Source: a virus
IMG/VR virus record: IMGVR_UViG_3300021389_000012
Span: 12,530-76,529 of that record
Direction: 5' to 3' (one strand)
Length of the DNA stretch: 64,000 nucleotides
Position numbers and translations under genes: made by a program
Shown here: positions 8,229 to 64,000 of the stretch, piece after piece
Layout: each line of letters starts with the position of its first letter
Numbering within the stretch: position 1 is the first letter of the stretch
Notes under the pieces: model-generated
What the model was told of the DNA's origin: nothing
What the model saw: only the letters and a program-made list of their open reading frames with translations
The model's database searches: none

Positions 8229-8262
8229 TAAGTAATATACACTTATAATGCACAAAAACCTA

Positions 8263-8291: not shown

Positions 8292-8360
8292 GTATTTAAG
8301 ACATCTTGCCATCGGCCAAGACTAAATACATACGTTATAACCTTTAAAGGAGAATGTCAA

Positions 8361-9221: not shown

Positions 9222-9223
9222 TT

Positions 9224-46614: not shown

Positions 46615-47307
46615 ATGAAAAGACCTATTGAAACATATACAGATAGTTTTGGTCAAACTATACATTTTACTGTACCAGAACCACATAAACAGATTTGCAT
46701 TAACATCTCAGGTGGAGCCGATAGTGCTATACTGTTATGGATGTTAATACAATACTGTGAAAAACATATACCAGATGCTGAACTACATGTTATAACATCA
46801 GCTAATCCTATTAAGGGCTGGTACAATGCTAAATGGAGTACTAGTGTACTCGATAAAGTACTCCATCTCACAGGAACTAAATTAATTAAAAGCCATTATA
46901 CATTTTATAGTACAGATCAAATTAGATCAGAACTAGATGAGGTAGAAAAAATGCAACAAGATTTACATGGAATAACATTTACTTTACATGGAACTACACA
47001 AAATCCTCCAATGGAAATAGTTGAATTATTAGAAGGTCGTTATGAACCACGTGATGCAGGACATGGTAGAATGATAATTAGAGAATATGTACCAGGAATA
47101 ACACGTTGGACACCATTAATGGAAGTAGATAAACGTATGGTAGCATATTTGTATAAACATTTTGATATGATGGAAATTTTATTTCCATATACTAGAAGTT
47201 GTGAACAAGAGGCACGACACAACAAAGATGAACCAGACTGGATGATAACACACTGTGGCGAATGCTGGTGGTGTAAAGAACGTCACTGGGCATTTGGGAG
47301 ACACTAA
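46615..47307 (+). CDS. QueC-like PP-loop adenine-nucleotide alpha-hydrolase
   Basis: ISGGADSA PP-loop and TRSC...HCGECWWCKER Zn site. Confidence 0.75.
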   Translation: MKRPIETYTDSFGQTIHFTVPEPHKQICINISGGADSAILLWMLIQYCEKHIPDAELHVITSANPIKGWYNAKWSTSVLDKVLHLTGTKLIKSHYTFYSTDQIRSELDEVEKMQQDLHGITFTLHGTTQNPPMEIVELLEGRYEPRDAGHGRMIIREYVPGITRWTPLMEVDKRMVAYLYKHFDMMEILFPYTRSCEQEARHNKDEPDWMITHCGECWWCKERHWAFGRH

Positions 47308-48863: not shown

Positions 48864-48875
48864 GAGAAAAATAAA

Positions 48876-49910
48876 ATGAACAATAAATATAAATCTTGGT
48901 GTAAATGGGATCCATTAAAAACAGTTATGATTGGAAGATCATATTATCCAGAATATTATAGAGATATAAAAAATGCTAAAGTAAAAGACTGCTTAGTTAG
49001 AATAGCAGAAGAAACTGAAGAAGATTTTAAAAATTATGAAAAAGTTTTAAAACAATTTGGTTGCGAAGTTATTAGACCAGAACTAGATATAGATGAAAAT
49101 TTAGCAGAATATATTGAACAACATGAAAGACAGCATAAAAAGTTTACGAGACCACCAGCTCAACCAAGAGATGGACAACAGGTTATGGGCGAAGAAATGC
49201 TTTACTCAATGAGAGATCATCCTAGCATAAAGGCAGCTTTAGATAATTATAATTCAGTTGATTCGTTTGATTTAACAGAAGCAATTACAAAACCTGGCGA
49301 AATGAGAAGCCACTTTTTTGATGCACCTGGAGTAACATGTGTTGGAAATAGAGTTTACGTTGATAAAAAAGAAGTACCAACAGACGTCATTGATATATTA
49401 ACAGAAAGATATCCAGAAAGAGAATTTATATTTGTAAAAATAGGTGGACACAATGATGGGTGCTTTCATACATTAAAACCTGGAGCAATATTATCTTTAG
49501 AAAGATATACACAATATGAAGAAACATTTCCTGGGTGGGATGTATGTTATCTTCCTAATCAGTCTTGGTCGCTAGTACGTGACTTTACAGATCTAAAGAA
49601 GAAAAATAGTGGAAAATGGTGGCTAGCAGGAGAAGAAAAAAATAATAATTTTACTGACTTTGTAGAAACATGGTTAACAGATTGGGTAGGATATTGTGAA
49701 GAAAGTGTATTTGACGTTAATGTACTGATGCTAGATGATAAGCATGTATGTGTAAATGGCTATAATAAGACTGTATTTGATTTTTTAAAGAAACATGATA
49801 TAGAACCAATTATTGTTCCGTTTAGGCATAGATTTTTTTGGGACGGTGGATTGCATTGTGTTTCTTTGGACTTATATCGAGAAGGCGACATGCAAAACTA
49901 CTTTAAATAA
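48876..49910 (+). CDS. amidinotransferase (pentein / L-Arg amidinotransferase family)
   Basis: WDPLKTVMIGR, PRD, GHNDG and the C-terminal catalytic DGGLHC. Confidence 0.85.
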   Translation: MNNKYKSWCKWDPLKTVMIGRSYYPEYYRDIKNAKVKDCLVRIAEETEEDFKNYEKVLKQFGCEVIRPELDIDENLAEYIEQHERQHKKFTRPPAQPRDGQQVMGEEMLYSMRDHPSIKAALDNYNSVDSFDLTEAITKPGEMRSHFFDAPGVTCVGNRVYVDKKEVPTDVIDILTERYPEREFIFVKIGGHNDGCFHTLKPGAILSLERYTQYEETFPGWDVCYLPNQSWSLVRDFTDLKKKNSGKWWLAGEEKNNNFTDFVETWLTDWVGYCEESVFDVNVLMLDDKHVCVNGYNKTVFDFLKKHDIEPIIVPFRHRFFWDGGLHCVSLDLYREGDMQNYFK

Positions 49911-49958
49911 TAACATTTTGAATGTTTATTGATAAATACATTAAAGGAATACTATACA

Positions 49959-52748
49959 ATGCAACTATCACAAGAGATTTTTAACATCCTAAAGGGTGCA
50001 AACATTAAATTAAAATTGTTTGATCCAATGGGAAATAAAACATTAGATCCTGAAATATCAGCGAGATTTTACGCATATGATAATGATTTTCTTGTCACTA
50101 TTAGAGAAGAAGAAGATGGAGTTGAACTAGTTGTACAAGCAGGAGCTAGTTTCAATTTTAATGAACACAAAGATTTATTGAATAGTATTAAAAAAGCAGG
50201 ACACAACGCTATGGCAGAATATAACATTAGAAAATTTGATAAGAATATTGAATTAAAAGACTTCGCTCACGATGTAGTAAAAGAAGATGAGCGTACTGAA
50301 AAGGCAATGAAAGACATGCAACCAAGCGCCGTTACAGGCTATTACGAGATCACAGACTTCTGGAAAGAACACACGCAGATGTGGGACAAAAGTGTCGACG
50401 AAGTGATGCAAATGATTTATGAGTGGACTTGGATTGAAATGACAACAGCCACTCGAGACAGAGATGAATTAGCAAAACGTACATTAGCAATAGTAGTTGA
50501 CGCATTGAGGAACAAAAAAGACGATATGACATTTGATGATATGATTGCTCAGTTGGAATCAAAAAATGAAGAAATACGCAGATTAAAAGAACTATCTGGA
50601 ATTAAAGAAGCAGATAGAAGTGATGTTACACATGCTCAACTTTTACCTCACATTAAAAACGTTAAAGCAGCAATGATAAGACACGCTCAAGAAGATCCTA
50701 GCGAAGCAAATGAATTTATTGAACATCTTGATGATATGATGCAGGTTGGCGATGTAGAGGTTGTAGACATGATGCAACCAGACTATATGGATACTGAAGC
50801 AAGAGATAGCCTAATAGGGTATTTTAAAGTTTCAATATCACAAGATCCTACATTATATAACATGTTATTCCCAGGTGAAGATATTAAGTGGGACCAAAGC
50901 GAATACAAAGACATGTTTGAATCAATGAACGAAGGCGGAAATTCAGTAGAGGCATTTATGGCACATGTAGTTGATCATGCTAAAGAAATTCAAGCAGATA
51001 ACTATAGAATGACTGATAGTTCATATTACGAATTCACAGATGAAATAGATACAGATGATGAAGAATTTATGAGTATGCCACAAGTGCAAGCTATATTAAA
51101 AGCAATACCACATGTGGATATGGAAAACACAGATATTAAACATGCAATTGATGTTTTAGCATCAGGCGAATTACTTGAAGCAGAAACTGAATCATATTCA
51201 CCAGGTGATGAGTATGCTGATTCAGAAGGCATGGTAAGTAATTGCTGTGGTGCTCCTATGTATGATTATGATGATGGACATGGTAGATGTAGCGATTGTC
51301 ACGATATGGCAGCCGGTGAAACTGATGAAGAATTTTATGAAAATACATACGATACTAAAGATTTTGAAGTAAATCCTAGAGCAGGTCACAGAGACCAAAT
51401 GGCACACCCAGAAAATCAAATGGGCACAGGTCCAGGAATTAAAACTAAGCCAAAGTTGCGTCCAAAAAACTTAAAAATGAAATACGATATTAATCAAGCA
51501 GTAAATAAAGCAGTAAACGAAGAAGACGAAGAAGCAATCGCGGCTAGAGACGAATTCTTAAAAGTTATGGATATGAAACCAAAGAGTGGCAACAAAGCAA
51601 TTGATACGATTAAAAAGATTGTAGCAGACAAACAAAACATGCAAGTCAAATTTGACGATGGTAAGATGAAAGTTGATTTATATACAGCATCAGCAGTGTC
51701 ACAAGTATACGATGCTGTAAGCGATGAAAACAAAGAAAAAATTGACAATATGATAAAAACTAAAGTGGGTATGATGAGATTAATTCAATTCGCATTTACC
51801 AAACTTAGTGAACAAGTACAAGTAATGGAAAATGCTAAAAAAGAAGGTAGATTAGATGAAGTACTACCTCTTGTACCATTGGCTATTGGAGCCGCAAGGG
51901 TTCTAGGACCAATGGCAGCGAAAGCATTAGCCAAAAAGTTCGGTAAGAAGGCAGTTAAAAATGCCGCAGGAAAATTCAAGCCAGGAATGAATCCTAATTC
52001 TGTAAAAACTCAAATCAAAAAGGGTGCTGGTGACGGTGTTATAAAGCAAATAATAAAGAAATCACCTGGTCTAAAGACATCAGCAACAGTTTCTGGTTCA
52101 GATATACTGCAAGGCGGCGATGGTACGGGTTCAACTGCTATCGATAATGCTTATGATTTTGTAAGAAGTGGCGGTAGTTCCAATTCTTCTAATAAAACAT
52201 CAAATTCCAAAATGTCTAATTATGCAAGAGATACTGTAAAGGCTTGGGAATCTAAAGAAGATGGTGAAAACATTTCAGAATATGCAGGTAAAGATGTTGT
52301 TTATGATAAAAATGGCAAGCCACACGACCCAAATAGTTCAAAAGGCAAAACAATTGTAAATATGAAATGTAACAATCCTAATGTTAAAGATAAAGAAGGA
52401 TGTGGCACTGGAATAGATAAAGACAAGAAACGCAGAAACGCGGCATTACTTAAAAAGGGTGTCGGAATGGCTAAAACTGGTGTGAAGAAGTTAGGTAAAG
52501 CGGCAGCCAGCAGTGTTACTGATACGGGATTTGCTAATCCATTTGAATCATTAGAAGCCAAAGCGACTAAGATGATTGAAGATGCGGTAGAAAAGACAGA
52601 AAAGATGCCTAAAATTGACCCAACTAAAATTAAAACACCCACTAATATGAAAGTCACATCACACGGAAAGCCTTCGACATCAAAAGATAAGAAAATGCCA
52701 GGTGACCATCATCCAGATTTAAAACTCAGTGCAAAAGTCTTATTTTAA
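49959..52748 (+). CDS. large modular internal head protein
   Basis: Acidic modules separated by xxE sites, RRLKELSGIKE, an SNCCG..CSDC module and a basic C-terminal part. Start reassigned to MQLSQ after the late promoter at 49932. Confidence 0.65.
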   Translation: MQLSQEIFNILKGANIKLKLFDPMGNKTLDPEISARFYAYDNDFLVTIREEEDGVELVVQAGASFNFNEHKDLLNSIKKAGHNAMAEYNIRKFDKNIELKDFAHDVVKEDERTEKAMKDMQPSAVTGYYEITDFWKEHTQMWDKSVDEVMQMIYEWTWIEMTTATRDRDELAKRTLAIVVDALRNKKDDMTFDDMIAQLESKNEEIRRLKELSGIKEADRSDVTHAQLLPHIKNVKAAMIRHAQEDPSEANEFIEHLDDMMQVGDVEVVDMMQPDYMDTEARDSLIGYFKVSISQDPTLYNMLFPGEDIKWDQSEYKDMFESMNEGGNSVEAFMAHVVDHAKEIQADNYRMTDSSYYEFTDEIDTDDEEFMSMPQVQAILKAIPHVDMENTDIKHAIDVLASGELLEAETESYSPGDEYADSEGMVSNCCGAPMYDYDDGHGRCSDCHDMAAGETDEEFYENTYDTKDFEVNPRAGHRDQMAHPENQMGTGPGIKTKPKLRPKNLKMKYDINQAVNKAVNEEDEEAIAARDEFLKVMDMKPKSGNKAIDTIKKIVADKQNMQVKFDDGKMKVDLYTASAVSQVYDAVSDENKEKIDNMIKTKVGMMRLIQFAFTKLSEQVQVMENAKKEGRLDEVLPLVPLAIGAARVLGPMAAKALAKKFGKKAVKNAAGKFKPGMNPNSVKTQIKKGAGDGVIKQIIKKSPGLKTSATVSGSDILQGGDGTGSTAIDNAYDFVRSGGSSNSSNKTSNSKMSNYARDTVKAWESKEDGENISEYAGKDVVYDKNGKPHDPNSSKGKTIVNMKCNNPNVKDKEGCGTGIDKDKKRRNAALLKKGVGMAKTGVKKLGKAAASSVTDTGFANPFESLEAKATKMIEDAVEKTEKMPKIDPTKIKTPTNMKVTSHGKPSTSKDKKMPGDHHPDLKLSAKVLF

Positions 52749-52760
52749 ACAAATAACCTA

Positions 52761-52816
52761 TTGACTTTTTAAGTCAGTTATGTTAATATATAAAGAGTGA
52801 GAAATCACTCTTTTTT
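52761..52816 (+). promoter_or_regulatory. sigma70 promoter overlapping a terminator hairpin
   Basis: TTGACT, 17 bp spacer, TAATAT; AAAGAGTGA-GAAA-TCACTCTTTTTT at 52792-52816. Confidence 0.65.
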
Positions 52817-52841
52817 ATTGCACAACTTATAGGAGATTTAT

Positions 52842-53102
52842 ATGTCAATTGACGCTATCAACGAAGAAGAAAAAGCCAGACTCATTCAACTAGTGAATGA
52901 AGGTTGCCTAGTTCTACAAGAATGTGAAGACCTCAAAGGTGGTTTACGTGACACTGTAAGAGCAATTGCTGAAGAAATGGATGTTAAACCATCGGTACTA
53001 AACAAAGCAATCACGGTCGCACACAAGGCAAAACTTGCTGAAACTCGTGCTGATTTTGAAGATATGGAAACTATCTTAGAGACAGTAGGTCGCACTCTTT
53101 GA
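52842..53102 (+). CDS. small dsDNA-binding protein (T4 DsbA-like)
   Basis: 86 aa; LRDTVRAIAEEMDVKPSVLNKAITVAHK. Confidence 0.65.
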   Translation: MSIDAINEEEKARLIQLVNEGCLVLQECEDLKGGLRDTVRAIAEEMDVKPSVLNKAITVAHKAKLAETRADFEDMETILETVGRTL

Positions 53103-55906
53103 GTTACGTAGATGCATTCTACAACAAAGACAAAGATATAGTTCAAGTTGTAGAAAGAAGTAAAGGCAAACGAGTCTACAATGATTATCCAGCGTGGCGT
53201 ACTTTCTATGTGAAAGACCCACGCGGTGACCACTTAAGTATTCACGGCGACAAAGTTCGTCAAATCAAATGTAAACGCCTCAAAGACCTTCATAAAGAAC
53301 GAAAGATAAATTCAGGTAAAGCATTTTACGAAAGTGATATGAAGCCCGAAGTTAAGTGTTTGAGTGAGAACTATAACGGTATAGACTCGCCAACACTTAA
53401 TACTGCTTTCTTCGATATTGAGACTGACTTTGATGCTAGTCGTGGCTTCGCAGACCCGAGTGACCCATTTATGCCAATTACAGCCATTACAGTTCATCTT
53501 CAATGGTTAGAATTGTTGGTAACTCTTGTTATTCCGCCAAAGGGTATGCGTGAGGGCGAGGGTCTTAAAGAAGCACAACGCATCTGTGAACAATTCGAAA
53601 ACACAGAACTCTATCTAAGTGAAGCAGATATGCTGAATGATTTCATGGATGTCATTGAAGATGCTGATGTGCTAACTGGTTGGAACTCTGAAGGTTATGA
53701 TATTCCATATACTGTTAATCGAATTACTAGAGTATTAAGTAAGTCGCACACACGAAAAATGTGTCTTTGGGATTTATATCCTCAGAAACGTAAGATAGTA
53801 AAGTACGGCAAAGAACAAGAAACGTTTGATTTGTTTGGCAGAATTCACTTAGACTACTTAGAACTATATCGTAAGTATACTTACCACGAAATGCATTCAT
53901 ATGCACTTGATACAATTGGCGAACACGAAGTAGGTGAAAAGAAAGTTGCATATGACGGCACATTAGACCAGTTATATAACAACGACTTCTACAAGTTCGT
54001 GGCATACAACAGACAAGACGTTGCATTACTTGATAAGATTGATAAGAAACTAAGATTTATCGAACTAGCAAACGAGATTGCACACGACAATACTGTGAAC
54101 ATCAAAACAACAATGGGTGCGGTTGCTGTTACTGAACAAGCAATTATCAATGAAGCACACAGAAGAGGCATGGTCGTTCCTGACAGAAAGAGACGTGAAT
54201 GGTCAGACGATGATATAGAATATTCAGACGAAGAACTACAAGCATTAGAATTACAGAAAGCCGCTGGTGCTTTTGTGGCAGTTCCAAAAGCAGGGTTGCA
54301 AAGATGGGTAGCAGGCATTGATATCAACTCTCTTTATCCATCAGTTATTCGTGCGATGAATATGTCTCCTGAAACTATTGCTGGTCAACTTAGACCTGAT
54401 TTAACTGAACAAATGATTGGTAGTAGAATTAAAGAGGGCAGAAAAACTGGTGCAAAGGGATATGGTTCATCTCAAGCGTGGGATGAAACATTTAGTTCAG
54501 AAGAATTTCGTTTAGTTAATGAGAAAGATAAAGCCAGTAACATTACTTTAGTCCTTGAAGACTCAACCGTTGAAGAGAATAAAACTACACAAGACCTTAC
54601 TGGTGCAGAAGCCTATGATTTAGTATTTAATAGTGGACTAAACTGGAGTCTTACTGCTAATGGCACTATATTTAAACAAGATGTTCAAGGTATTATTCCA
54701 AGTCTCTTAGAACGTTGGTATGCAGAACGACAAGTGATGCAACAGCAGAAAAAAGAAGCAATCAAAGACAACGATGCAGTTGCAATTGCTCACTGGGATA
54801 AAAGACAGTTAGTTAAAAAGATTAACTTGAACTCGCTTTACGGTGCGTTACTGAATCAAGGTTGTCGTTTCTATGATAAGCGTATTGGTCAAAGTACAAC
54901 ACTCACAGGTCGTTGTATCACTCGACATATGGGTGCAAAGACGAATGAAGTTATAGCAGGAACTTATGATTATCAAGGTCCAGCAGTTATCTATGGTGAT
55001 ACAGACTCCATTTATTATTCAATGTATCCTGTTTACAAACAAGAGATTGACGATGGAACTATTGAATGGAACAAAGACAAGGTCTTACAGTTGTATGATG
55101 AAGTTGCGAATCAAGTGAACGAAAGTTTTCCAGACTTTATGAAAACATTCTTTAATGTTCCTAGAAAAGAAGGTGAGATTATTGTTGCTGGTCGTGAGAA
55201 CTGTGCAACAATGGGTATCTTTATTAAGAAGAAAAGATATGCGATGCTTATCTATGACGATGATGGTGAACGCAGAGATGTTGATGGCAAACCAGGAAAG
55301 ATTAAAGCAATGGGTCTTGACTTGAAACGAAGTGATACACCGAAGTATATGCAAAACTTTCTTAGTGAAGTATTGTTGAAGATATTGACTGACGGAACAC
55401 GTGAAGTTGTCATCGATATGGTCAAAGAGTTTAAGAAAGAGTTTAGAGCAAAGCCTGGTTGGGAAAAAGGTTCTCAGTCTCGTGTGAATAATTTGACTTC
55501 GTATAAGAACCGTGTGAATGCCGCAAAGAAGGCAATGGCAAGAGATATGAATATGGGTGGTGACAAATCTAAGAGAGATAAAGTACATCTTCCTGGACAC
55601 GTATCAGCCGCCTTGAACTGGAATATGTTACGTGAACTCAACCAAGATAGATACGCAGTAGAAATCGTAGATGGTATGAAGTGTATCATATGCAAACTAA
55701 AGCCAAATACTTTCAAGTTAAAGAGTGTTGCATACCCGACTGATGCTACTAAGATACCTCAGTGGTTCCAAGATTTGCCATTTGACCATGAGTTGATGGA
55801 GCAGACTATTGTTGATAAGAAACTAGATAATTTAATTGGTGTTCTCAAGTGGGACATGAGTGACGCAAATGCATCCGAGACCTTTGATAATTTGTTTGAA
55901 TTATAA
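53099..55906 (+). CDS. family B DNA polymerase (gp43-like)
   Basis: Exonuclease motifs FDIETD, WNSEGYDIPY and YNRQD; polymerase motifs DINSLYPS, KINLNSLYG, YGDTDS and KKRY. Confidence 0.97.
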   Translation: MSYVDAFYNKDKDIVQVVERSKGKRVYNDYPAWRTFYVKDPRGDHLSIHGDKVRQIKCKRLKDLHKERKINSGKAFYESDMKPEVKCLSENYNGIDSPTLNTAFFDIETDFDASRGFADPSDPFMPITAITVHLQWLELLVTLVIPPKGMREGEGLKEAQRICEQFENTELYLSEADMLNDFMDVIEDADVLTGWNSEGYDIPYTVNRITRVLSKSHTRKMCLWDLYPQKRKIVKYGKEQETFDLFGRIHLDYLELYRKYTYHEMHSYALDTIGEHEVGEKKVAYDGTLDQLYNNDFYKFVAYNRQDVALLDKIDKKLRFIELANEIAHDNTVNIKTTMGAVAVTEQAIINEAHRRGMVVPDRKRREWSDDDIEYSDEELQALELQKAAGAFVAVPKAGLQRWVAGIDINSLYPSVIRAMNMSPETIAGQLRPDLTEQMIGSRIKEGRKTGAKGYGSSQAWDETFSSEEFRLVNEKDKASNITLVLEDSTVEENKTTQDLTGAEAYDLVFNSGLNWSLTANGTIFKQDVQGIIPSLLERWYAERQVMQQQKKEAIKDNDAVAIAHWDKRQLVKKINLNSLYGALLNQGCRFYDKRIGQSTTLTGRCITRHMGAKTNEVIAGTYDYQGPAVIYGDTDSIYYSMYPVYKQEIDDGTIEWNKDKVLQLYDEVANQVNESFPDFMKTFFNVPRKEGEIIVAGRENCATMGIFIKKKRYAMLIYDDDGERRDVDGKPGKIKAMGLDLKRSDTPKYMQNFLSEVLLKILTDGTREVVIDMVKEFKKEFRAKPGWEKGSQSRVNNLTSYKNRVNAAKKAMARDMNMGGDKSKRDKVHLPGHVSAALNWNMLRELNQDRYAVEIVDGMKCIICKLKPNTFKLKSVAYPTDATKIPQWFQDLPFDHELMEQTIVDKKLDNLIGVLKWDMSDANASETFDNLFEL

Positions 55907-56445
55907 TGAGCAATACTTACACAGACTTAATTCAGAGACGAGCGAGAAACAAGGAATCAGATGAATGTTATACTCCATCTGACCAAGTTCAACCTCTTCT
56001 GGAATACATCGATAAAGATAAAACCTATTACGAAGCGACTAGTGGAACATCTAATCTAATCGTAGATGGCTTTAACAACAATGGATATAAGATAGTACCA
56101 AGTAATGGTAAAGACTTTTTTGACTGTGAGCCAGATGATGTGTATGACGGAGTTATAACTAATCCTCCATATAGCATCAAAGATAAGTTTATTGAACATT
56201 GTTATGCTCTTGGCAAACCATTTGCATTACTACTGCCAGTCACAAGTTTTCAAGGTGGTAAACGAGGCAGAATGTTTATAGAACACGGAATGTCTACACT
56301 CGTGTATAATAATCGTGTAGATTTTACAGGAAAGGGTAATCCAACATTCGGTAATGCTTGGTTTATTCACGGGTTTTTGCCTCCTAATACGATATATTGG
56401 GTAGATAATCCGAAACAAAATAAGAAAAGAATTGGTCAAATATAG
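55906..56445 (+). CDS. N6-adenine DNA methyltransferase-like protein
   Basis: DECYTP, DFF, ITNPPYS and PFALLLP. Confidence 0.75.
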   Translation: MSNTYTDLIQRRARNKESDECYTPSDQVQPLLEYIDKDKTYYEATSGTSNLIVDGFNNNGYKIVPSNGKDFFDCEPDDVYDGVITNPPYSIKDKFIEHCYALGKPFALLLPVTSFQGGKRGRMFIEHGMSTLVYNNRVDFTGKGNPTFGNAWFIHGFLPPNTIYWVDNPKQNKKRIGQI

Positions 56446-56446
56446 G

Positions 56447-56476
56447 TTGACAACCGACATAGGAATATGTTATAAT
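56447..56476 (+). promoter_or_regulatory. sigma70 promoter (extended -10)
   Basis: TTGACA, 18 bp spacer, TATAAT with an upstream TG. Confidence 0.7.
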
Positions 56477-56503
56477 TAATTAAATTAATCAGGAGAAGTA
56501 AAA

Positions 56504-57259
56504 ATGCGTGACATTTTAAAAGATATCGTAAAACATACACATTCGCTAGGAATCATTCAAGCGGCGAAAGTGACAACAGATGCCGAAGGCACAACTATTG
56601 ATGCGATGGACGAAGACCGTACTGTTGTATTGCGTGGTAAATTACATCAACCAGTTGCTGAATTCGAAGGCAAGTTTGGTCTTGGTAGACTAGGAGTCTT
56701 AAATGGATTACTTAGTTATACTAGTGAAGACAAAGAAGGCAATAAGATGGAGTCTGATGTTAAAGTAGGCACAGAAACACGAAACGGTGAAGATGTTACT
56801 ACTGAACTTAACTTCTCAATGCCTGGTGGTTTTGATAGTTCGTATCGAGTAATCGTAAGTGAATTAGTAGATGCTCAAATTAAAACTGCAAGTTTTCGTG
56901 GTGCCGCATGGAATGTAGAAATTATGCCATCACAAAAAGCAATCAAAGACTTACAATACTTTGCGGGTATTCTAGGTGCATTTGACCCACTGCTTACTGC
57001 AAGAACAGTTAAAGGTGATTTAGTTTTCTATATTGGTGATAGTTCAACAGATAGAGTAGAACTTCCTTTTGCAAGTAATGTAGAAGGTGAACTAAAGACT
57101 GGTTGGTCATTCCCATTATCAACAGTTCTAACTATTCTTAGACTTAGCGATACAAGTACAATGAATATGAAAATCTCAGACCAAGGTGCAATGATGATTG
57201 CAGTTGATAGCGGTCTAGGTTTATATGAATACATTTTACCTGCAAAAGCCGGTAATTAA
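56504..57259 (+). CDS. sliding-clamp-like protein (gp45-like)
   Basis: 251 aa near the polymerase; C-terminal ISDQGAMMIAVDSGLGLYEYILPA. Confidence 0.65.
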   Translation: MRDILKDIVKHTHSLGIIQAAKVTTDAEGTTIDAMDEDRTVVLRGKLHQPVAEFEGKFGLGRLGVLNGLLSYTSEDKEGNKMESDVKVGTETRNGEDVTTELNFSMPGGFDSSYRVIVSELVDAQIKTASFRGAAWNVEIMPSQKAIKDLQYFAGILGAFDPLLTARTVKGDLVFYIGDSSTDRVELPFASNVEGELKTGWSFPLSTVLTILRLSDTSTMNMKISDQGAMMIAVDSGLGLYEYILPAKAGN

Positions 57260-57301
57260 TAATATAAATACATTTAGAGAGGTCTAATATAGGAGAAGCA
57301 T

Positions 57302-57505
57302 ATGACTACACCCGTAAGACCAGATGTAGACGAGAAGAAACGCACTCGCCTCATATACTTAAAAAAACAACATAGAGATTTAGATGATGGTATTATAACT
57401 GCATTTAAAATGCACACAGAAGACCAAATTGTTGCTAAACTAAAACTTAAAAAGTTGCACCTGAAGGAAAAGATTGTCAAACTAGAAAGAGAACTACAAG
57501 ACTAG
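57302..57505 (+). CDS. DUF465/YdcH-family coiled-coil protein
   Basis: LKKQHRDLDD.I...KLKLKKLHLKEKI; late promoter TATAAATA at 57263-57270. Confidence 0.75.
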   Translation: MTTPVRPDVDEKKRTRLIYLKKQHRDLDDGIITAFKMHTEDQIVAKLKLKKLHLKEKIVKLERELQD

Positions 57506-58056
57506 TGACTATCATAAAACCAACTCCGAAGACTATTCAAAATCTGATTAGAGTAATACCAGACCATCCTAGGCCTGGTGTTCTCTATCAGGATATGGCT
57601 AGTATATTTAATGCACCACAAGGACTTCAACACGTGATGACTTTGTTTTCCGACTATATTGAAACAAACAATATTGAGTTTAACAAAATCATTGGACTAG
57701 ATGCTCGTGGATTTCCTATGGCAGGTGCATTAAGTTCAGCAACTGGTATACCCTTTTCTATGGCTAGAAAGAAAGGTAAACTACCAGGAGAAACTATCTT
57801 TACAGAATATGAACTAGAGTATGGAACTGATGAATTGCATTTACAGAAAGGTGCAATACAAAGAGGTGACAAAGTTCTAGTGATAGATGATGTTATCGCA
57901 ACTGGTGGAACATTAGGTGCTGTAATTACATTAACTGATAGATTTGGTGCTGATATTAGTAGTATACTAAGTATAATGGAACTAGAGTTTTTAGGTGGTG
58001 GTGCTAAGTTGAGAGACGAAGGCTATGATGTATACTCTATACTGCAAGAACAATAA
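57505..58056 (+). CDS. apt: adenine phosphoribosyltransferase
   Basis: IPDHPRPGVLYQD, GLDARGF, ARKKGKLPG, YELEYG and PRPP loop VIDDVIATGGT. Confidence 0.92.
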   Translation: MTIIKPTPKTIQNLIRVIPDHPRPGVLYQDMASIFNAPQGLQHVMTLFSDYIETNNIEFNKIIGLDARGFPMAGALSSATGIPFSMARKKGKLPGETIFTEYELEYGTDELHLQKGAIQRGDKVLVIDDVIATGGTLGAVITLTDRFGADISSILSIMELEFLGGGAKLRDEGYDVYSILQEQ

Positions 58057-58074
58057 GAAAATCAAAGGATTTAA

Positions 58075-59163
58075 ATGAACAACTATATTTTTACAAGCGA
58101 AAGTGTAAGCGACGGACACCCAGATAAAGTTTCTGACCAGATTAGTGATGCATTAGTTGATGCAGGACTAAAGAATGGCGATGAAACTACTCGTGTTGCT
58201 ATCGAAACACTTGTAACTACTAACATGGTAACAGTAGCAGGTGAAGTGAAGAACTTCAATGTTCCTAAAGAAGAAGTAGACGACATCATTCGTAGAAAAG
58301 TCAAAGAGATTGGCTATGAACAAGATGGGTTTCATTGGGAAAAACTAAGAATTTACAATGAAATTCATTCACAATCAAGTGACATTGGATTAGGTACTGA
58401 TAGTTTTGGTGCAGGTGACCAAGGTATTATGTTTGGCTATGCAACTAATGAAAACGATGCAATGCTACCAGCACCAATTCATTACTCACATGAAATTCTA
58501 AAGAAACTAAAAGAACTTCGATTAGATGGATATGATTTCTTACTACCAGATGCAAAATCTCAAGTAAGTATTCAGTATGTTGGTGGTCGTGTTCAACGAG
58601 CAGACCAAATTGTTGTAAGTACACAACATAAACAAGGCTTTGAGCATAGTCTCAAGTCACCTGTCAAAGATGCAGTCAACAGTGTAATGGGAGATTTAAT
58701 AGACAATGAAACTACTTGGCATATCAATCCTACAGGCAATTTTGTCATTGGTGGTCCTGATGGCGATACAGGACTCACCGGGCGTAAGATTATCGTTGAT
58801 ACTTATGGTGGCTATGCTCCCCATGGTGGTGGTGCCTTTTCTGGAAAAGACCCCACAAAAGTCGACCGAAGTGCCGCCTACATGGCAAGGTGGTTAGCAA
58901 AGAATGTTGTAGCAGATAATATGGCAGATTGGTGCCAAATTCAATTGTCATATGCTATCGGCGTAAAAGAACCAACAAGTATCTACTTAGATAGTAATGG
59001 ACACAACAGAACTATTCAAAAGTATATTGAAGAAAACATTGACCTAACACCAAAAGGTATCATTGATAGATTTGATTTATTCAAGTTTTATGGTTATAGT
59101 GAAAACTGTACATACGGACACTTTGGTGACAAAGATGTTCCGTGGGAGAAGATAGGGTGGTAA
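58075..59163 (+). CDS. metK: S-adenosylmethionine synthetase
   Basis: FTSESVSDGHPDK, GAGDQG, GLTGRKIIVDTYGG and GGGAFSGKDPTKVDRS. Confidence 0.97.
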   Translation: MNNYIFTSESVSDGHPDKVSDQISDALVDAGLKNGDETTRVAIETLVTTNMVTVAGEVKNFNVPKEEVDDIIRRKVKEIGYEQDGFHWEKLRIYNEIHSQSSDIGLGTDSFGAGDQGIMFGYATNENDAMLPAPIHYSHEILKKLKELRLDGYDFLLPDAKSQVSIQYVGGRVQRADQIVVSTQHKQGFEHSLKSPVKDAVNSVMGDLIDNETTWHINPTGNFVIGGPDGDTGLTGRKIIVDTYGGYAPHGGGAFSGKDPTKVDRSAAYMARWLAKNVVADNMADWCQIQLSYAIGVKEPTSIYLDSNGHNRTIQKYIEENIDLTPKGIIDRFDLFKFYGYSENCTYGHFGDKDVPWEKIGW

Positions 59164-59179
59164 ACAAGGAGAATTTGTA

Positions 59180-59467
59180 ATGATTAAGACGTTATTTGGA
59201 AAAGGTTATTCGAAGAAGTTCATGGACAGAATCGAATTTAGAAGAAAAGAATATTATGAGAAGCGTAGAATTCAAACTATACGGGCGAATGCTATGAAGA
59301 TGGCTCATAACTGGAAACACGAATATCCTGAAGGGACTCCATTAGATTATATTTGTGATGATATTATCGAATGTTGGGAAAGAAATGCAAAAGTAGGCAT
59401 CTTTAGTGGCATAGATAAGAAACAGGATATCAAAATTGATAATCCGAAAGGAGATGATAATGAGTAA
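59180..59467 (+). CDS. hypothetical protein
   Basis: 95 aa with AAGGAG RBS. Confidence 0.65.
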   Translation: MIKTLFGKGYSKKFMDRIEFRRKEYYEKRRIQTIRANAMKMAHNWKHEYPEGTPLDYICDDIIECWERNAKVGIFSGIDKKQDIKIDNPKGDDNE

Positions 59468-59927
59468 GACACTTAATCCAACATCCTGGTTTGGTACGCC
59501 AGAAGAAAAAGAACGAGCAGTTGCTAGGCGAATTACGGATGAAAAAGAACAAGCAATTGCACTTGAAGAAATAAACTTTAAGTACGGACATACTGACCAA
59601 CATACTTATGATAAGAATATGGCAACACACAACGGTGAAGAATATATTCGAGTGATTGGTATGGAATTAGACAAAGACAAACCAGGACAAGGTTTCTTTG
59701 AGTTAGATTTCAATGATAATTTTGTAGAATATCTAGCAAAGGCTGGTTATGATGGGCTAGAACAAGACCAAATCGTAGATAATTGGTTCAGTGATTTGTG
59801 TAAGAACATTGTACTGAATGATTTAGAAGACGAAGAAGGTATTAGAAGAAGTGTACAGTCTGATAGTAAAGAAGGCCTAATCATCAGTAAGATTAAAACT
59901 GACAAAGATACTTCCGAATATTATTAA
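59460..59927 (+). CDS. conserved hypothetical phage protein
   Basis: GFFELDFND.FV..L...GY....IVDNWFSDLCKN; start MSKTL after AGGAG. Confidence 0.7.
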   Translation: MSKTLNPTSWFGTPEEKERAVARRITDEKEQAIALEEINFKYGHTDQHTYDKNMATHNGEEYIRVIGMELDKDKPGQGFFELDFNDNFVEYLAKAGYDGLEQDQIVDNWFSDLCKNIVLNDLEDEEGIRRSVQSDSKEGLIISKIKTDKDTSEYY

Positions 59928-59930
59928 AAC

Positions 59931-59959
59931 TTGACCAATTTCTCAAGTTATGATATAAT
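59931..59959 (+). promoter_or_regulatory. sigma70 promoter
   Basis: TTGACC, 17 bp spacer, TATAAT with an upstream TG. Confidence 0.75.
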
Positions 59960-59990
59960 GGTAGTAACTTAAATATAGAGAGAGAAACAT

Positions 59991-60989
59991 ATGGCAACAT
60001 TCATTCTAGTCGATTCGTTTAATATGTATCATAGAGCAAAGCACGTAGCAATGCGTGGTGCTAGTATTGATATGAAAATTGGTATGGCATATCATATTAT
60101 GCTTAGTAGTGTAAAACTATGTTATAACAAATTCAATGCAGACCATGCCGTGTTCTGCCTAGAGGGTCGCAGTTGGCGTAAAGACTTCTATGAACCTTAT
60201 AAAAAGAATAGACAAGTCGCCCGTATGGCTAAGAGTGTCAGAGAACAAGAAGAAGACCAAATTATGTTTGATTCTTACGCAGATATGGTAGAGTTCTTAG
60301 ATACAAAAACTAATGTAACGATGTTACGAAATCCAGAAGCAGAAGCAGACGATATGATTGCTTTGTTTATTGCGGCACATCCAAATGATAATCATATTAT
60401 CGTATCAAGCGATAGTGATTACTTTCAACTTATCACAGACAATGTAACTATGTATGATGGTGTACAAAATCGTATCATTACTAAAGATGGTTTCTTTAAA
60501 GATGATAAGAATATGACTCCTATCAAAGAGAAGAAGACTGGTGAAATCAAAGAGAAAGTAGACCCAGAGTGGGCATTGTTTGAGAAGTGTGTGCGTGGTG
60601 ATACATCAGATAACATCTTTAGTGCATATCCTGGTTGTCGTAAGAAAGGTACTAAGAACAAAATTGGTATGTTAGAAGCATACGCAGACAGAGATACTGG
60701 TGGGTTCAATTGGAATAACTTTATGTTACAACGCTGGACTGACCATAATGGCGTAGAACATACTGTGCGTGATGATTATGAACGCAATGTTAAATTGGTA
60801 GACTTAACTGCTCAACCACACGACCTTAAAGTAAAGTTTATTGAAACTATTGCAGAGAATAGTATTCCTAAGACTAATGCTGGTGTTGGTATGAACTTCT
60901 TAAAGTTCTGTGGCATACACGATTTACAAAATCTTGCTAAGTCGCCTGACGAACTTGCGAAAATACTCAACAATCCGTATCCTGTATAA
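59991..60989 (+). CDS. T4-type RNase H / 5'-3' flap exonuclease
   Basis: ILVDSFN, SWRKDFY..YKKNR, EADD, SSDSD and GDTSDNI. Confidence 0.92.
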   Translation: MATFILVDSFNMYHRAKHVAMRGASIDMKIGMAYHIMLSSVKLCYNKFNADHAVFCLEGRSWRKDFYEPYKKNRQVARMAKSVREQEEDQIMFDSYADMVEFLDTKTNVTMLRNPEAEADDMIALFIAAHPNDNHIIVSSDSDYFQLITDNVTMYDGVQNRIITKDGFFKDDKNMTPIKEKKTGEIKEKVDPEWALFEKCVRGDTSDNIFSAYPGCRKKGTKNKIGMLEAYADRDTGGFNWNNFMLQRWTDHNGVEHTVRDDYERNVKLVDLTAQPHDLKVKFIETIAENSIPKTNAGVGMNFLKFCGIHDLQNLAKSPDELAKILNNPYPV

Positions 60990-61705
60990 TGCATTATATA
61001 TTTGATGTAGATGGCACTCTTACACCGAGTAGAGATAGAATAGACGAAGACTTTAGACTATGGTTTTTAGACTTTGTTGAATATCATAATGTTTACTTAG
61101 TTACAGGAAGTGACCAAAGCAAAACAGTAGAACAAATAGGGGAAGAACTATTTGCTAAAGTAGAATGTGTATATAATTCATCAGGCAATACTAAACATAA
61201 GAATGGTGTATGTGTATTCAATACTAAAGATTTAGAATTGCCAAGAGATGCATATGCATTCTTACTAAAGAAATCGATTAGTACTGACTTTGATATTGCT
61301 ACTGGAAATCATTTTGAATCCAGACCAGGATTATTAAACTTTAGTATTGTTGGTAGAAATGCTAATAGAGTACAACGAAAGAAATATGTTAAGTTTGATA
61401 ATTCAACTAATGAAAGACGACTTATTTCTGATGAATTTAATAAAAAGTTTACTAAGAAATTAGGTCTAGTTTCACAAGTTGCAGGCGAAACAGGACTAGA
61501 CATTATTGAGATGGGAAAAGATAAAGCACAAATATTAAAAGATTTTACATTCCAAGACGAACTAATGTTCTTTGGTGATAACATTCAACCAGGTGGCAAT
61601 GATTATGGAATTGCACAAGCAATTAAATATGCACCGTATAAATATTCAGAGTGTCATAATGTAAAGAATTGGAAAGAAACTTGGAAGATACTTAAGAAAA
61701 TATGA
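60989..61705 (+). CDS. HAD-IIB phosphomannomutase-like enzyme
   Basis: FDVDGTLTPSR, VTGSD, NFSIVGRNA and FFGD...GGND. Confidence 0.85.
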   Translation: MHYIFDVDGTLTPSRDRIDEDFRLWFLDFVEYHNVYLVTGSDQSKTVEQIGEELFAKVECVYNSSGNTKHKNGVCVFNTKDLELPRDAYAFLLKKSISTDFDIATGNHFESRPGLLNFSIVGRNANRVQRKKYVKFDNSTNERRLISDEFNKKFTKKLGLVSQVAGETGLDIIEMGKDKAQILKDFTFQDELMFFGDNIQPGGNDYGIAQAIKYAPYKYSECHNVKNWKETWKILKKI

Positions 61706-62223
61706 TATACACTACAGAAATAGTTAAAGATAAGTTTTGGATTGTAGAGAATTCAGGAGTTAAAATAGGAACAATACGTTTCTGTTCGTCTGATGATTTT
61801 GAATTGACTATAAAAGAAGACAGTGTTAATGAACATCTATCGTTATCAGAACTTATTAATCGTTATGGTGAAAAGATACTAATACCTAAAGAAACTACAG
61901 TAAACATAATTGATAGAACTGACACTAGGGGCGGATGGCACACTTCTTTAGCAGATATAGAAGGATATCCATCTAAGCATCTAGTTTACAATGTAGAAAT
62001 AATAGAGAAGAACGGAAAACAATTTTACACATATACCAAGAGCAAGACTAGTAGTGTAAGATATGCCGCAGGATATTACGGAGTAAAATACCCTGCTGGT
62101 TGGAGATGGTTCTATGGCGGAAAACTTGAAACTTTAGATACCTACGAGTTCATTGGTCCATTCAAATCTAAATCAGCAATGGATATCGAAACAAAGTTAG
62201 CGACTAAACGTGATGAATTATAA
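61702..62223 (+). CDS. hypothetical protein
   Basis: 173 aa; KFWIVE and YTKSKTS..RYAAGYY..GPFKS. Confidence 0.7.
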   Translation: MIYTTEIVKDKFWIVENSGVKIGTIRFCSSDDFELTIKEDSVNEHLSLSELINRYGEKILIPKETTVNIIDRTDTRGGWHTSLADIEGYPSKHLVYNVEIIEKNGKQFYTYTKSKTSSVRYAAGYYGVKYPAGWRWFYGGKLETLDTYEFIGPFKSKSAMDIETKLATKRDEL

Positions 62224-62401
62224 ACATTTAAAAAACCTATTAGCGACTATCAAACAAGCGAATATAAGAGGCGACAACAAAATAACACTGCCTATAAAAG
62301 AGGCAAATGAAATTCAGAATGATATTGCCTTACTGTTATTAGAACTTAAAACTAAAGATTCGACAGAAGAAAAGACAATCGACGGCGGTAAATTCGACTA
62401 A
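62210..62401 (+). CDS. hypothetical protein
   Basis: 63 aa ending DGGKF. Confidence 0.55.
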   Translation: MMNYKHLKNLLATIKQANIRGDNKITLPIKEANEIQNDIALLLLELKTKDSTEEKTIDGGKFD

Positions 62402-62474
62402 TATATCAATTATATCAGCATATAATACATAAAATTTGATAAATAAGAGTATAACAAATAATAAGGATACTCTT

Positions 62475-62762
62475 ATGGCTAGACCTAAACCTATAATAAT
62501 CTTAGAACATACCGATAATCAAACTTATCGGAGTGAACAAGTTCTCAAGGCAACAGCCGTGTATTCCGTGTTTCATAAAGGGGAAGCAATCAATCTTCGT
62601 AGTCTTAACTCACTCGTAAACTTTCCTGGACCAAAATATAAGAAGGTGTCATTCAGTAACCCAGGACACGCAATCAATCTAGCACAGCGATTGAATAAGT
62701 TATTCAGATGCGATGATTTCGAAGTATATATACTCACAAAGGGTGATAAATTAGAGTTGTAA
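62475..62762 (+). CDS. conserved hypothetical phage protein
   Basis: MARPKP...GPKYKKVSFSNPGHAINLA; late promoter at 62439. Start reassigned. Confidence 0.7.
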   Translation: MARPKPIIILEHTDNQTYRSEQVLKATAVYSVFHKGEAINLRSLNSLVNFPGPKYKKVSFSNPGHAINLAQRLNKLFRCDDFEVYILTKGDKLEL

Positions 62763-62764
62763 CT

Positions 62765-63154
62765 GTGGACAAGAAAGAGTTAATAAGTTATATTAACAAA
62801 CACACAACTGGAAAAACAGCAGGCAGAAAAGAAATCACTATTACTGATATCTTTATCAGTGCCCAGCCTGACACAGGATTTAGAGTATCACCTCTTGGCA
62901 GAGATATTCTCAAAAAACATTTCAAAACATATAAGATAGAACTGAAGTTAGGTTTAGACACTATGCATCAACATAGAAAAAATGCAATAGGAACTGGTCA
63001 TCAAATACTCACACTCGATAAGTATCTTAATACGCCATATTATCTAAGAAAGTCAACATTAGTTTTATTTGAAGAAGTGCCTGCCGCAGAGTTATTAATG
63101 CTTGATGGAGACATAAACCTCTGGGTACAAAATAAAACATTTTATAATACCTAA
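62765..63154 (+). CDS. hypothetical protein
   Basis: 129 aa, GTG start. Confidence 0.65.
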   Translation: MDKKELISYINKHTTGKTAGRKEITITDIFISAQPDTGFRVSPLGRDILKKHFKTYKIELKLGLDTMHQHRKNAIGTGHQILTLDKYLNTPYYLRKSTLVLFEEVPAAELLMLDGDINLWVQNKTFYNT

Positions 63155-63159
63155 AAAAC

Positions 63160-63187
63160 TTGACAAAACCCCGAATCGTGCTATAAT
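63160..63187 (+). promoter_or_regulatory. sigma70 promoter with GANTC in the spacer
   Basis: TTGACA, 16 bp spacer containing CGAATCG, TATAAT. Confidence 0.75.
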
Positions 63188-63217
63188 ACTTGTATAGATA
63201 ATCAAAAAGGGTAACAA

Positions 63218-63460
63218 ATGTCAGTAAATTTCAAAGAATTTTCACGCTTTTTCAACCAATCAGCAAACCTAGAAGAAAACAAACTTTCAGATGGCACTAT
63301 CAACTGGAGTTTTGTTGATGCGGACTGCTGTCTTTCTGGGTGGAACACTAAGATTGGCGATGAATACTTAGATATCTTTGATAAGATGGTAGAAGATTTT
63401 ATCCTAGATGATGCAGGTGAAAAATTAGAAGTATTGAAAAGGGAATATCTGGGTCAATAA
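63218..63460 (+). CDS. hypothetical early protein
   Basis: 80 aa; ENKLSDGTINWSFVDAD. Confidence 0.65.
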   Translation: MSVNFKEFSRFFNQSANLEENKLSDGTINWSFVDADCCLSGWNTKIGDEYLDIFDKMVEDFILDDAGEKLEVLKREYLGQ

Positions 63461-63469
63461 GTCAAAAAC

Positions 63470-63497
63470 TTGACAAATCCAGAATCAGTGTTACAAT
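63470..63497 (+). promoter_or_regulatory. sigma70 promoter with GANTC in the spacer
   Basis: TTGACA, 16 bp spacer containing AGAATCA, TACAAT. Confidence 0.7.
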
Positions 63498-63526
63498 AAT
63501 AGTATATTAAATAGAGAGGTTAATTT

Positions 63527-64000
63527 ATGAATAAAGTATCAACAAACGATTTAGATGTGAGAGTAGTTCGTCCTAGTGATGTTCGTGCTGAAATCAACTA
63601 TGCTATGAACCGAAAGCGTCCTGTGTTTATTTGGGGACCTCCTGGTGTTGGTAAATCAGAGATAGTAGACAGTATTACACAAGAACGCTCTGGTTTTATG
63701 ATTGACCTTCGTCTTGCTCTTATGGAGCCTACAGATTTACGAGGTATTCCATACTTCAATGAGAAGAATGGTACTATGGAATGGGCCACACCTTCAGATT
63801 TGCCTAGCCAAGAACTTGCTGACCAGTATGAAAGTGTTGTTCTTTTCTTAGATGAAATGAACCAAGCACCACAATCAGTTCAAGCCGCGGCTTATCAGTT
63901 AATTCTAAACCGTCGTTTAGGTTCTTATGTACTACCTGACAATGTGTTAATCGTTGCGGCTGGTAACAGAGAGAGTGATAGAGGTGTTGCATATCGTATG
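63527..64000 (+). CDS. MoxR-type AAA+ ATPase (3'-truncated)
   Basis: VFIWGPPGVGKS (Walker A), DLRGIP, LFLDEMN (Walker B) and IVAAGN. Confidence 0.9.
   Translation, partial: MNKVSTNDLDVRVVRPSDVRAEINYAMNRKRPVFIWGPPGVGKSEIVDSITQERSGFMIDLRLALMEPTDLRGIPYFNEKNGTMEWATPSDLPSQELADQYESVVLFLDEMNQAPQSVQAAAYQLILNRRLGSYVLPDNVLIVAAGNRESDRGVAYRM

Follow-up and report, generated by a model that had tools for sequence, protein, structure and literature searches.

Some viral genomes lack a short palindrome altogether. All GATC sites have been lost from the 140 kb Staphylococcus phage K (PMC6532042), GCGC has been lost from five enterobacterial jumbo phages of 345–359 kb, including NC_019401, and AGCT is totally absent from Pandoravirus dulcis and P. 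quercus (both bioRxiv 10.1101/712018). Here, we analysed a window of 64,000 nt, the final 64 kb of a 76.5 kb IMG/VR contig (IMGVR_UViG_3300021389_000012). The family B DNA polymerase (PolB) of the window is 42.5 % identical to that of NC_019401, and its identity to the PolB of Sinorhizobium phage Phosso, Atu_ph07 and Rak2-like phages is 45, 44 and 42–43 %, respectively. An abrupt loss of GATC and AGCT near 51.1 kb had been given two readings in the original prediction, of which one was an assembly chimera, and it is this reading that the relatives, the Logan contigs and the uniqueness of the junction favour. The contig is very probably a chimera assembled from two related marine giant phages, hereafter lineages X and Y, and it is almost certain that no single genome possesses this boundary. 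The features of the window are listed in Table 1.

Table 1. Features of the 64,000-nt window, with the evidence for each assignment
Feature	Position	Strand	Evidence
Lineage X part: structural and packaging genes, normal GATC/AGCT density	1–51326	+	85–98 % nucleotide identity to X contigs L068–L079 and L205
Tail sheath (X part)	38723–41125		
TerL (X part)	47307–48863		
Hybrid ORF, 939 aa from TTG	49929–52748	+	X N-terminal part joined to Y C-terminal part
X/Y-identical 42-nt stretch, onset of Y homology	51188–51229	+	Alignments of all Y relatives begin at 51188
Shared Cys-rich cassette, X-strain-specific version	51230–51326	+	13 of 56 mismatches to Y contig L062 fall here
143-nt exact repeat common to co-occurring X and Y strains; probable misjoin point	51327–51469	+	Logan contigs, L127
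Lineage Y block without GATC/AGCT, to contig end	51470–64000	+	Similarity to L062, Y-like signature
Family B DNA polymerase (PolB), lineage Y	53099–55906	+	PF00136, PF03104
179-aa PHROG 799 protein, annotated as DNA methyltransferase (weak assignment)	55906–56445	+	phrog_799, E 1e-31
Phosphoribosyltransferase-domain protein	57505–58056	+	PF00156, E 2e-17
S-adenosylmethionine synthetase (MetK)	58075–59163	+	Three of three MetK domains, E 1e-32 to 1e-58
5'-3' exonuclease (FEN/RNase H type)	59991–60989	+	PF02739, E 9e-19
Phosphomannomutase-like HAD hydrolase	60989–61705	+	PF03332, E 1e-23
AAA+ ATPase, truncated by contig end	63527–64000	+	PF07728; 376 aa in Y contig G001

Computed counts agreed with the abrupt loss of both words. 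GATC was found 149 times and AGCT 177 times in positions 1–51092, with the last copies at 50973 and 51089, while neither occurred in positions 51093–64000. About 40 of each had been predicted for the last 12.9 kb, and the rate of the left part indeed gives 37.6 GATC and 44.7 AGCT; with a maximal-order Markov model built on the block, the expected numbers are 44.3 and 22.6. The probability that both words are at zero by chance is below 1e-29, and the next-longest gaps without a site in the contig are 2.3 kb for GATC and 3.0 kb for AGCT. GCWGC fell from 89 copies on the left to three on the right, all before 52.6 kb, the point past which it had been described as missing. The reported gap in GCGC is real as a count (22 on the left and none on the right), but we rejected it as a signal because only 3–5 copies are expected on the right and the rates in the GATC-free and the other lineage are alike (0.25 and 0.24 per kb). 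The boundary itself had been placed at 51093, whereas the origin of the sequence changes within 51327–51469; positions 51093–51326 are left-lineage sequence that happens to carry no site. The tetranucleotide signature, calculated with GATC and AGCT excluded, was X-like in every chunk of the left part and Y-like in the right block, flipping at the junction. The purged block extends to the end of the contig, and position 64000 marks its end only in this sense.

We then compared the two sides with their relatives. Lineage X carries GATC and AGCT at normal density throughout its 86–123 kb contigs (about 2.7 and 2.2 per kb), with observed/expected ratios of 0.93 for GATC, 0.71 for AGCT and 0.65 for GCWGC. 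The right part of the window is 99.56 % identical over 12,813 nt to contig L062 (IMGVR_UViG_3300021375_001184) of lineage Y. In the 227 kb of Y that were examined, which are fragments from uncultured seawater contigs and not a closed genome, we counted two GATC (769 expected), no AGCT (385 expected) and 32 GCWGC (154 expected), the last corresponding to a lineage-wide ratio of 0.21 in the relatives. CGCG and GTGCAC were likewise depleted. The two long Y contigs contained neither word in 127 kb (G001), and two GATC and no AGCT in 100 kb (G002), so that every 5 kb bin was empty save for these two GATC. The avoidance spans no less than 127 kb around a central PolB; sites are lacking from Y over at least 67 kb on the upstream side of this gene and at least 57 kb on its downstream side. 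In all seven cases of a conserved residue with a site in X, Y uses synonymous codons, for example GAC CCN for GAT CCN and GCA for GCT, which accords with the earlier remark that Asp-Pro and Asp-Gln are spelled GAC-C in the block. Host restriction enzymes with MboI/DpnII (GATC), AluI (AGCT) and TseI (GCWGC) specificity would have selected this avoidance. The real biology is a lineage-wide site avoidance in Y that is ordinary and known in kind.

The methyltransferase and MetK genes had been pointed out as a peculiarity of the block. Both are annotated there, the methyltransferase weakly: the 179-aa protein had no match in Pfam or NCBIfam, and its PDB matches were all at E≥0.09. A homologue of this gene also adjoins PolB in relatives with normal GATC and AGCT, and it therefore does not account for the avoidance. 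No DNA methyltransferase of the Dam (PF02086), C5 (PF00145) or N6/N4 (PF01555) type was found in five long X and Y contigs, each representing about one-third of a genome. This search gave no hint as to why X tolerates the sites.

Both X and Y are marine jumbo myoviruses, related yet distinct, and CheckV puts the genome of each at about 360 kb. Their orthologues are collinear, at 25–76 % amino-acid identity (43–82 % by global re-alignment), indicating that each is a genome of its own and not half of a shared one. This bears on a single genome with two compositional regimes, in which a replication module acquired long ago by recombination has lived under other restriction pressure, or a segment purged of sites is injected first as in T5 and T7. 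Such a genome would fit the replication genes in the block, the position of the block at the contig end, and the long contigs, which at first sight are complementary, those of X having TerL without PolB and those of Y having PolB without TerL. Nevertheless, X and Y both carry a shared set of orthologous genes in one order, and Y is devoid of sites far to both sides of PolB. There are also GATC- and AGCT-free contigs that encode a TerL, virion gene, SSB and UvsX of their own (L233 and L234, probably of the same lineage as Y); the order TerL, cassette gene, SSB, UvsX is found in X and in these site-free TerL contigs. PolB contigs L130–L137 (71–76 % identity) probably represent X's own PolB. Moreover, no second contig of either lineage switches from site-rich to site-free, and in one seawater run (X4, below) the left side occurs but not the right. 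Taken together, a genome with two regimes is very improbable. The synteny of the orthologues and run X4 led us to reject X and Y as halves of one genome, and the replication module under separate restriction pressure is not supported, given the extent of the avoidance in Y and the site-free TerL contigs. A T5/T7-like segment had already been considered less likely, in line with a Y that is site-free over this length and an X that is site-rich throughout.

Evidence on the junction itself came from Logan contigs of four seawater runs (coded X1–X4), for which the depths given are mean depths of contigs and not per-base read depths. The left side had depths of 23, 121, 45 and 14 in the four runs and the right side 9.95, 129.7, 86.2 and 0, and the right/left ratios of 0.4, 1.07, 1.8 and 0 indicate that the two sides are decoupled across runs. 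In X1–X3, the 143-nt repeat formed a separate contig with two entries and two exits in the graph, and its depth (35.5, 216.5 and 120.2) was approximately that of X plus Y. The 42-nt stretch at 51188–51229 was also a separate contig of approximately summed depth, and the loose end before 51188 was Y upstream sequence. A loose end past 51469 (TCTTGGCAAAAAAC...) was present in all four runs. Runs X1–X3 had both loose ends, the Y upstream one before 51188 and the X downstream one after 51469, and X4 had only the X downstream one. In the latter run, which lacks Y, a 2102-nt contig matches 50582–51469 with 100 % identity and beyond this point passes into other sequence, that of X; the X version of 51230–51326 is present there at 100 % identity. 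The exact 55-nt X-strain version of this cassette had no further match in IMG/VR. Both parental paths occur wherever the hybrid words occur. A minor population of true X-to-Y molecules in X1–X3 would be compatible with the contig graph.

Among the relatives, the right flank was accompanied by Y upstream sequence at 30 loci and the left flank by X downstream sequence at 11, whereas left and right flanks were together at none. About 40 IMG/VR loci and 22 metagenome loci all lacked the junction of the window, and the exact 198-nt junction was absent from 241 million JGI metagenome records. Positions 51327–51469 are identical in the X strain (the run X4 contig and L127) and the Y strain (L062, L285 and L286). 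IMG/VR contig L127 starts within the repeat and proceeds into the X gene, SSB and UvsX at 95 % identity, L205 likewise runs from the repeat into X sequence, and L062 has Y sequence on both sides. The spacing between TerL and PolB is 4 kb on the contig, compared with about 87 kb in PA5oct and Ettore, and the join is non-allelic.

The join lies inside a modular virion gene, as had been noted from the letters. Translation of the ORF likely begins at ATG 49959, yielding 929 aa. The N-terminal part belongs to the TerL-proximal, cassette-built virion gene of X and the C-terminal part to the PolB-proximal, cassette-built gene of Y; residues 1–472 match GATC-rich contigs only, and residues 392–939 match GATC-free contigs only. 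The native genes encode 810 aa in X and 689 aa in Y and have only short cassettes in common. The exact 929-aa hybrid protein was recorded from one contig, and the native X and Y proteins from three and two.

These observations suggest how the chimera probably arose. Lineage X would have supplied positions 1 to about 51326 and lineage Y about 51470 to 64000. The virion genes of both phages are built of portable cassettes, and co-occurring strains hold one 143-nt cassette piece at 100 % identity. At this repeat, the assembler very probably connected the entry from X with the exit into Y. We infer that the error in linking lies with the assembler, not with the phages.

Another hybrid contig, independent of the window, was identified: UPTG01003248.1 (L294), whose join is not identical to the one in the window. 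As far as a neighbouring shared cassette, it is 99.3–99.8 % identical to X strain L069, and beyond that 96.6–98.7 % identical to Y. It joins X to Y in the same orientation as the window; no reciprocal Y-to-X contig was seen. With a different cassette and a different X strain in the same gene, L294 counts against an assembly chimera.

Homologous recombination at the shared cassettes, during replication in one cell, could also have produced the join in the window as physical X–Y recombinant DNA. Such a molecule may be a dead-end intracellular product; a viable rearranged phage is less likely. The cassettes have 95–100 % nucleotide identity, against only about 70 % for the conserved genes of X and Y, which points to recent exchange between the lineages, and UvsX-type recombinases are encoded by both phages. 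The repetition of an X-left to Y-right join in the same gene of two independent contigs, by way of different cassettes and X strains, is in keeping with recombination as well. On the other hand, each hybrid is a singleton whose exact protein is recorded from a single contig, the junction is lacking in other JGI records, the sides are not coupled in depth, the right one being missing in X4, and both parental paths accompany the hybrid words. A non-allelic join would, in addition, delete roughly 100 kb, including the SSB, UvsX and helicase genes. The junction did not recur and the coverage of its sides was unlinked, unlike an established natural mosaic. We thus regard a physical recombinant in the window as unlikely. 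It is similarly doubtful that both X-to-Y joins, in the window and in UPTG01003248.1, are physical recombinants from co-infection of one host by phages only about 70 % identical and with opposite avoidance strategies; if they were, the cassettes would be recombination hot spots connecting otherwise isolated giant-phage gene pools.

With an assembly chimera as the preferred reading, the IMG/VR record is no basis for inferences on gene order, on the exchange of modules or on host range, the 929-aa hybrid 'protein' does not correspond to a real gene product, and the boundary, being a misjoin, has no importance as a genome feature. The cassette-built virion genes of co-occurring giant phages are a recurring trap for assemblers. 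Lineage Y with GATC and AGCT erased, its co-occurring sister lineage X with both kept, and other relatives with AGCT and GCWGC erased but GATC kept form a natural series on host restriction and giant-phage genomes, which could aid host prediction.

As in phage K and the enterobacterial jumbo phages, a short palindrome has been eliminated in Y across more than 100 kb. The avoidance in Y operates via synonymous codons and is lineage-specific, related lineages avoiding other words; it differs from the described cases in that two 4-mers are dropped together and GCWGC, CGCG and GTGCAC are depleted too. The pandoraviruses resemble Y in that a viral genome of very large size lacks AGCT and the pattern is graded among relatives, but they are eukaryotic giant viruses in which the loss has no accepted cause, whereas in the bacterial setting found here an AluI-type restriction enzyme is an obvious candidate. 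A terminal block that looks site-free on the contig recalls the first-step-transfer region of T5 and the early region of T7; in contrast, the avoidance in Y is not segmental, and the end of the block is the end of the contig and not of a genome. There is also a close likeness to inter-genome chimeric contigs from short-read metagenomes, with which the window shares an exact repeat longer than the usual k-mer sizes in two genomes of the same samples, a node with two entries and two exits and summed depth, a change in composition and coverage, and a junction that is not reproduced. It differs from them in that the repeat is a portable coding cassette in phage virion genes, not a mobile element or rRNA gene, and in that a further hybrid contig, from another data set, arose at a neighbouring cassette.

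The predicted loss of GATC and AGCT from the final ~12.9 kb of the window was borne out by counting: positions 1–51092 hold 149 GATC and 177 AGCT, and positions 51093–64000 hold none of either. The numbers expected in the last 12.9 kb are 37.6 GATC and 44.7 AGCT at the rate of the left part, and 44.3 and 22.6, respectively, when a Markov model is built on the block. The window makes up the final 64,000 nt of its source contig (76,529 nt, classed as linear, CheckV completeness 21%). Over the whole contig, the tail lacks GATC for 13.0 kb and AGCT for 12.9 kb, and the second-longest site-free gaps are 2.3 and 3.0 kb; the block reaches the contig end, so its length is a minimum for the avoidance. 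The G+C content is flat across the boundary (0.33–0.38). GCWGC was found 89 times to the left versus three times to the right. GCGC, also predicted to be absent, was indeed counted 22 times versus 0, but this absence is meaningless with only 3–5 sites expected on the right, and is not a lineage property.

The switch lies inside a cassette-built virion ORF (49929–52748, 939 aa), of which residues 1–472 match site-rich contigs only and residues 392–939 site-free contigs only. In nucleotide alignments, every site-rich relative (lineage X) ends at approximately 51343 and every site-free relative (lineage Y) starts at 51188, including L062 (IMGVR_UViG_3300021375_001184), whose identity over 51188–64000 is 99.56%. 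The PolB relatives in IMG/VR (59 loci, 86–100% aa identity) are without or nearly without both words on both sides, up to 10 kb each way. The long Y contigs G001 (127 kb) and G002 (100 kb) contain 0 and 2 GATC, respectively, and no AGCT, and the X contigs G003–G005 (86–123 kb) carry ~2.7 GATC and ~2.2 AGCT per kb in each 5-kb bin; no further switch was detected among these five whole contigs. The native X gene downstream of TerL encodes 810 aa and is followed by the SSB, UvsX and helicase genes, and the native Y gene upstream of PolB encodes 689 aa and follows other Y genes. The two proteins have only short cassettes in common, one of them Cys-rich (ESYSPGDE...SNCCGA...DGHGRC.DC).

To resolve the join, Logan contigs from four seawater runs were mapped over window positions 49000–54000. 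The depths of the left flank were 23, 121, 45 and 14, and those of the right flank 9.95, 129.7, 86.2 and 0. A loose end upstream of 51188 proved to be Y upstream sequence, and a loose end after 51469 (TCTTGGCAAAAAAC...) was common to the four runs; a 2102-nt contig from run X4 matched 50582–51469 without mismatch and then entered the TCTTGGCAAAAAAC... continuation. The sole IMG/VR contig matching a 30-mer of this loose end was L127, a GATC-rich contig that begins within the repeat and runs on across the remainder of the X gene to SSB and UvsX, with 95% identity to G003 and G005. The same route is taken by the X contig L205, 95–98% identical to the window. Between the window and L062, 13 mismatches fall in 51230–51326, followed by none until 52640. 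From these parental continuations, the 143-nt repeat therefore has two entries and two exits, and in the window's contig the entry from X is linked to the exit into Y.

Features of the window and of the join (window positions unless stated)
Feature	Position	Part or source	Remarks
Tail sheath	38723–41125	left part	
40–57-nt cassette copies	45412, 45851, 46258, 50565		in the whole source contig (G000): 57941, 58380, 58787, 63094
TerL	47307–48863	left part	
Y-like cassette	51188–51469		L127 1–118; L062 8090–8371
42-nt shared piece	51188–51229	Logan contigs	
X-specific piece	up to 51356	Logan contigs	
143-nt piece	51327–51469		depth 35.5, 216.5, 120.2; approximately the sum of the flanks
Y piece	51440 onward	Logan contigs	
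PolB	53099–55906	right part	
179-aa PHROG-799 'methyltransferase'-like protein		right part	weak assignment
Phosphoribosyltransferase		right part	
MetK		right part	
5'-3' exonuclease		right part	
Phosphomannomutase-like protein		right part	
AAA+ ATPase		right part	truncated by contig end

This junction was not seen elsewhere. Among the loci crossing the region, 30 join the right flank to Y upstream sequence, 11 join the left flank to X downstream sequence, and none pairs the two flanks. No sequence in the JGI metagenome collection, from which the window's own record may be excluded, matched the 198-nt junction string exactly, and the hybrid protein (likely ATG start 49959) is recorded from a single contig, compared with three for native X and two for native Y. 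The original prediction had left recombination and assembly chimera side by side; given the repeat with two entries and exits and the non-recurring junction, an assembly chimera is very probably the best explanation of the boundary. A physical recombinant molecule is improbable. TerL and PolB are 4 kb apart here versus ~87 kb in phages PA5oct and Ettore, and PolB is absent from the 85 kb downstream of TerL in X; a true crossover at this point would be non-allelic and would have deleted ~100 kb, including the SSB, UvsX and helicase genes.

Bearing on the recombinant alternative, a metagenome search with the cassette detected a second, independent X-to-Y hybrid contig, UPTG01003248.1 (L294, bases 3160–9501). 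Its TerL and cassette gene start are 99.3–99.8% identical to the X strain L069, and it is 96.6–98.7% identical to Y from the neighbouring shared cassette through the start of PolB, with every GATC/AGCT site left of position 2652. In both its X parent and its crossover it departs from the window, and the hybrid protein that it encodes is likewise a singleton. This shows that X-to-Y joins arise repeatedly at shared cassettes, which fits recurrent misassembly and leaves room also for real recombinant molecules from co-infection. The cassette of the X strain is itself Y-like over up to ~280 nt, with 143 nt identical to Y, and other X relatives (L069, L071) diverge after 51343. Because these 143 nt are 100% identical while conserved genes are ~70% identical, this looks like a recent genuine X–Y cassette exchange.

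That one genome simply has two compositional regimes is highly improbable. Long X contigs carry TerL without PolB and long Y contigs PolB without TerL, and this split briefly allowed X and Y to be two halves of one ~360-kb genome. The two-halves reading was rejected because of four results. First, orthologues run in the same order in X (G005, 42–86 kb) and Y (G001, 11–46 kb; G002, 5–28 kb), with 25–76% identity, or 43–82% by global re-alignment. Second, the site-free contigs L233, L234 and L243 have their own TerL, 59–61% identical to that of X, and their genes are arranged as in X (TerL, cassette-built gene, SSB, UvsX). Third, in the Logan contigs of one run the left side was present at depth 14–19 and the right side was absent. 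Fourth, when GATC and AGCT were excluded, the tetranucleotide signature resembled that of X in every chunk of the left part and that of Y in the block on the right.

The closest phages in culture are jumbo myoviruses: TerL shares 54% identity with that of Pseudomonas phage PA5oct, and PolB shares 45% with that of Sinorhizobium phage Phosso, 44% with Atu_ph07 and 42–43% with Rak2-like phages. The methyltransferase-like gene, mentioned earlier as notable in the purged block, is weakly assigned and not specific to the avoiding lineage. A 344-aa ORF (48876–49910; region 48864–49927) is inserted between TerL and the cassette gene, which directly follows TerL in every X relative (for example, 9992 to 10000 in L069). 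It matched nothing in Pfam or NCBIfam and only PHROG 25854, of unknown function; ~125–195 nt are similar to a marine single-cell virus record and to a Synechococcus phage region whose annotation is glycine amidinotransferase, and Logan contigs have loose ends at 49042 and 49781. A 40–57-nt coding cassette recurs with 88–98% identity in three adjacent virion genes of the X part. Within PolB, a 337-nt patch (55453–55789) diverges by ~7% from the otherwise nearly identical L062 and holds 24 of all 56 mismatches, compared with two over the 4.1 kb before it. The patch resembles a small tract of recombination between Y strains. Lineage Y also has a gene for a 1113-aa protein whose N-terminal domain is cytidylyltransferase-like (L062 1577–4918; upstream of PolB in G001 and G002) and a large array of paralogous ~400-aa genes (G001, 97–107 kb), with weaker paralogues in X.

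Finally, we analysed the words avoided in 227 kb of Y. The observed and expected counts were 2 and 769 for GATC, 0 and 385 for AGCT, 32 and 154 for GCWGC, 10 and 77 for CGCG, and 0 and 23 for GTGCAC. In X, GATC is near expectation (observed/expected 0.93) and AGCT mildly low (0.71), and X sites at conserved amino acids are replaced by a synonymous alternative in Y in seven of seven cases. The purge is graded inside the Y clade by PolB identity to the window: neither word occurs at 92% or more; at 89–91%, GATC occurs 0–8 times per locus and AGCT is absent; and at 86–88%, GATC reaches 1.4 per kb and AGCT 0–2 per locus. Both words are present in the PolB group at 71–76% identity (GATC near normal, AGCT 0.3–3.1 per kb), and many lineages at ~55% have no AGCT, often no GCWGC, and normal GATC. 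TerL relatives display the same patchwork. Among marine jumbo-phage relatives matched by PolB and TerL profiles (L138–L202, L209–L276), avoidance profiles differ: many are without AGCT, and often without GCWGC, at normal GATC (L138, for instance, has 74 GATC but 0 AGCT and 0 GCWGC in 22.7 kb), L130, L131 and L215 lack GCWGC only, and L233 and L234 lack GATC and AGCT. The Y pattern is lineage-specific restriction-site avoidance. Phage K has no GATC (PMC6532042), and, according to bioRxiv 10.1101/712018, five enterobacterial jumbo phages (345–359 kb) have no GCGC and pandoraviruses no AGCT; one of these five, NC_019401, has a PolB 42.5% identical to that of the window. With these as precedents, what remains real is a marine jumbo phage with lineage-wide loss of GATC and AGCT, a phenomenon already known in kind.
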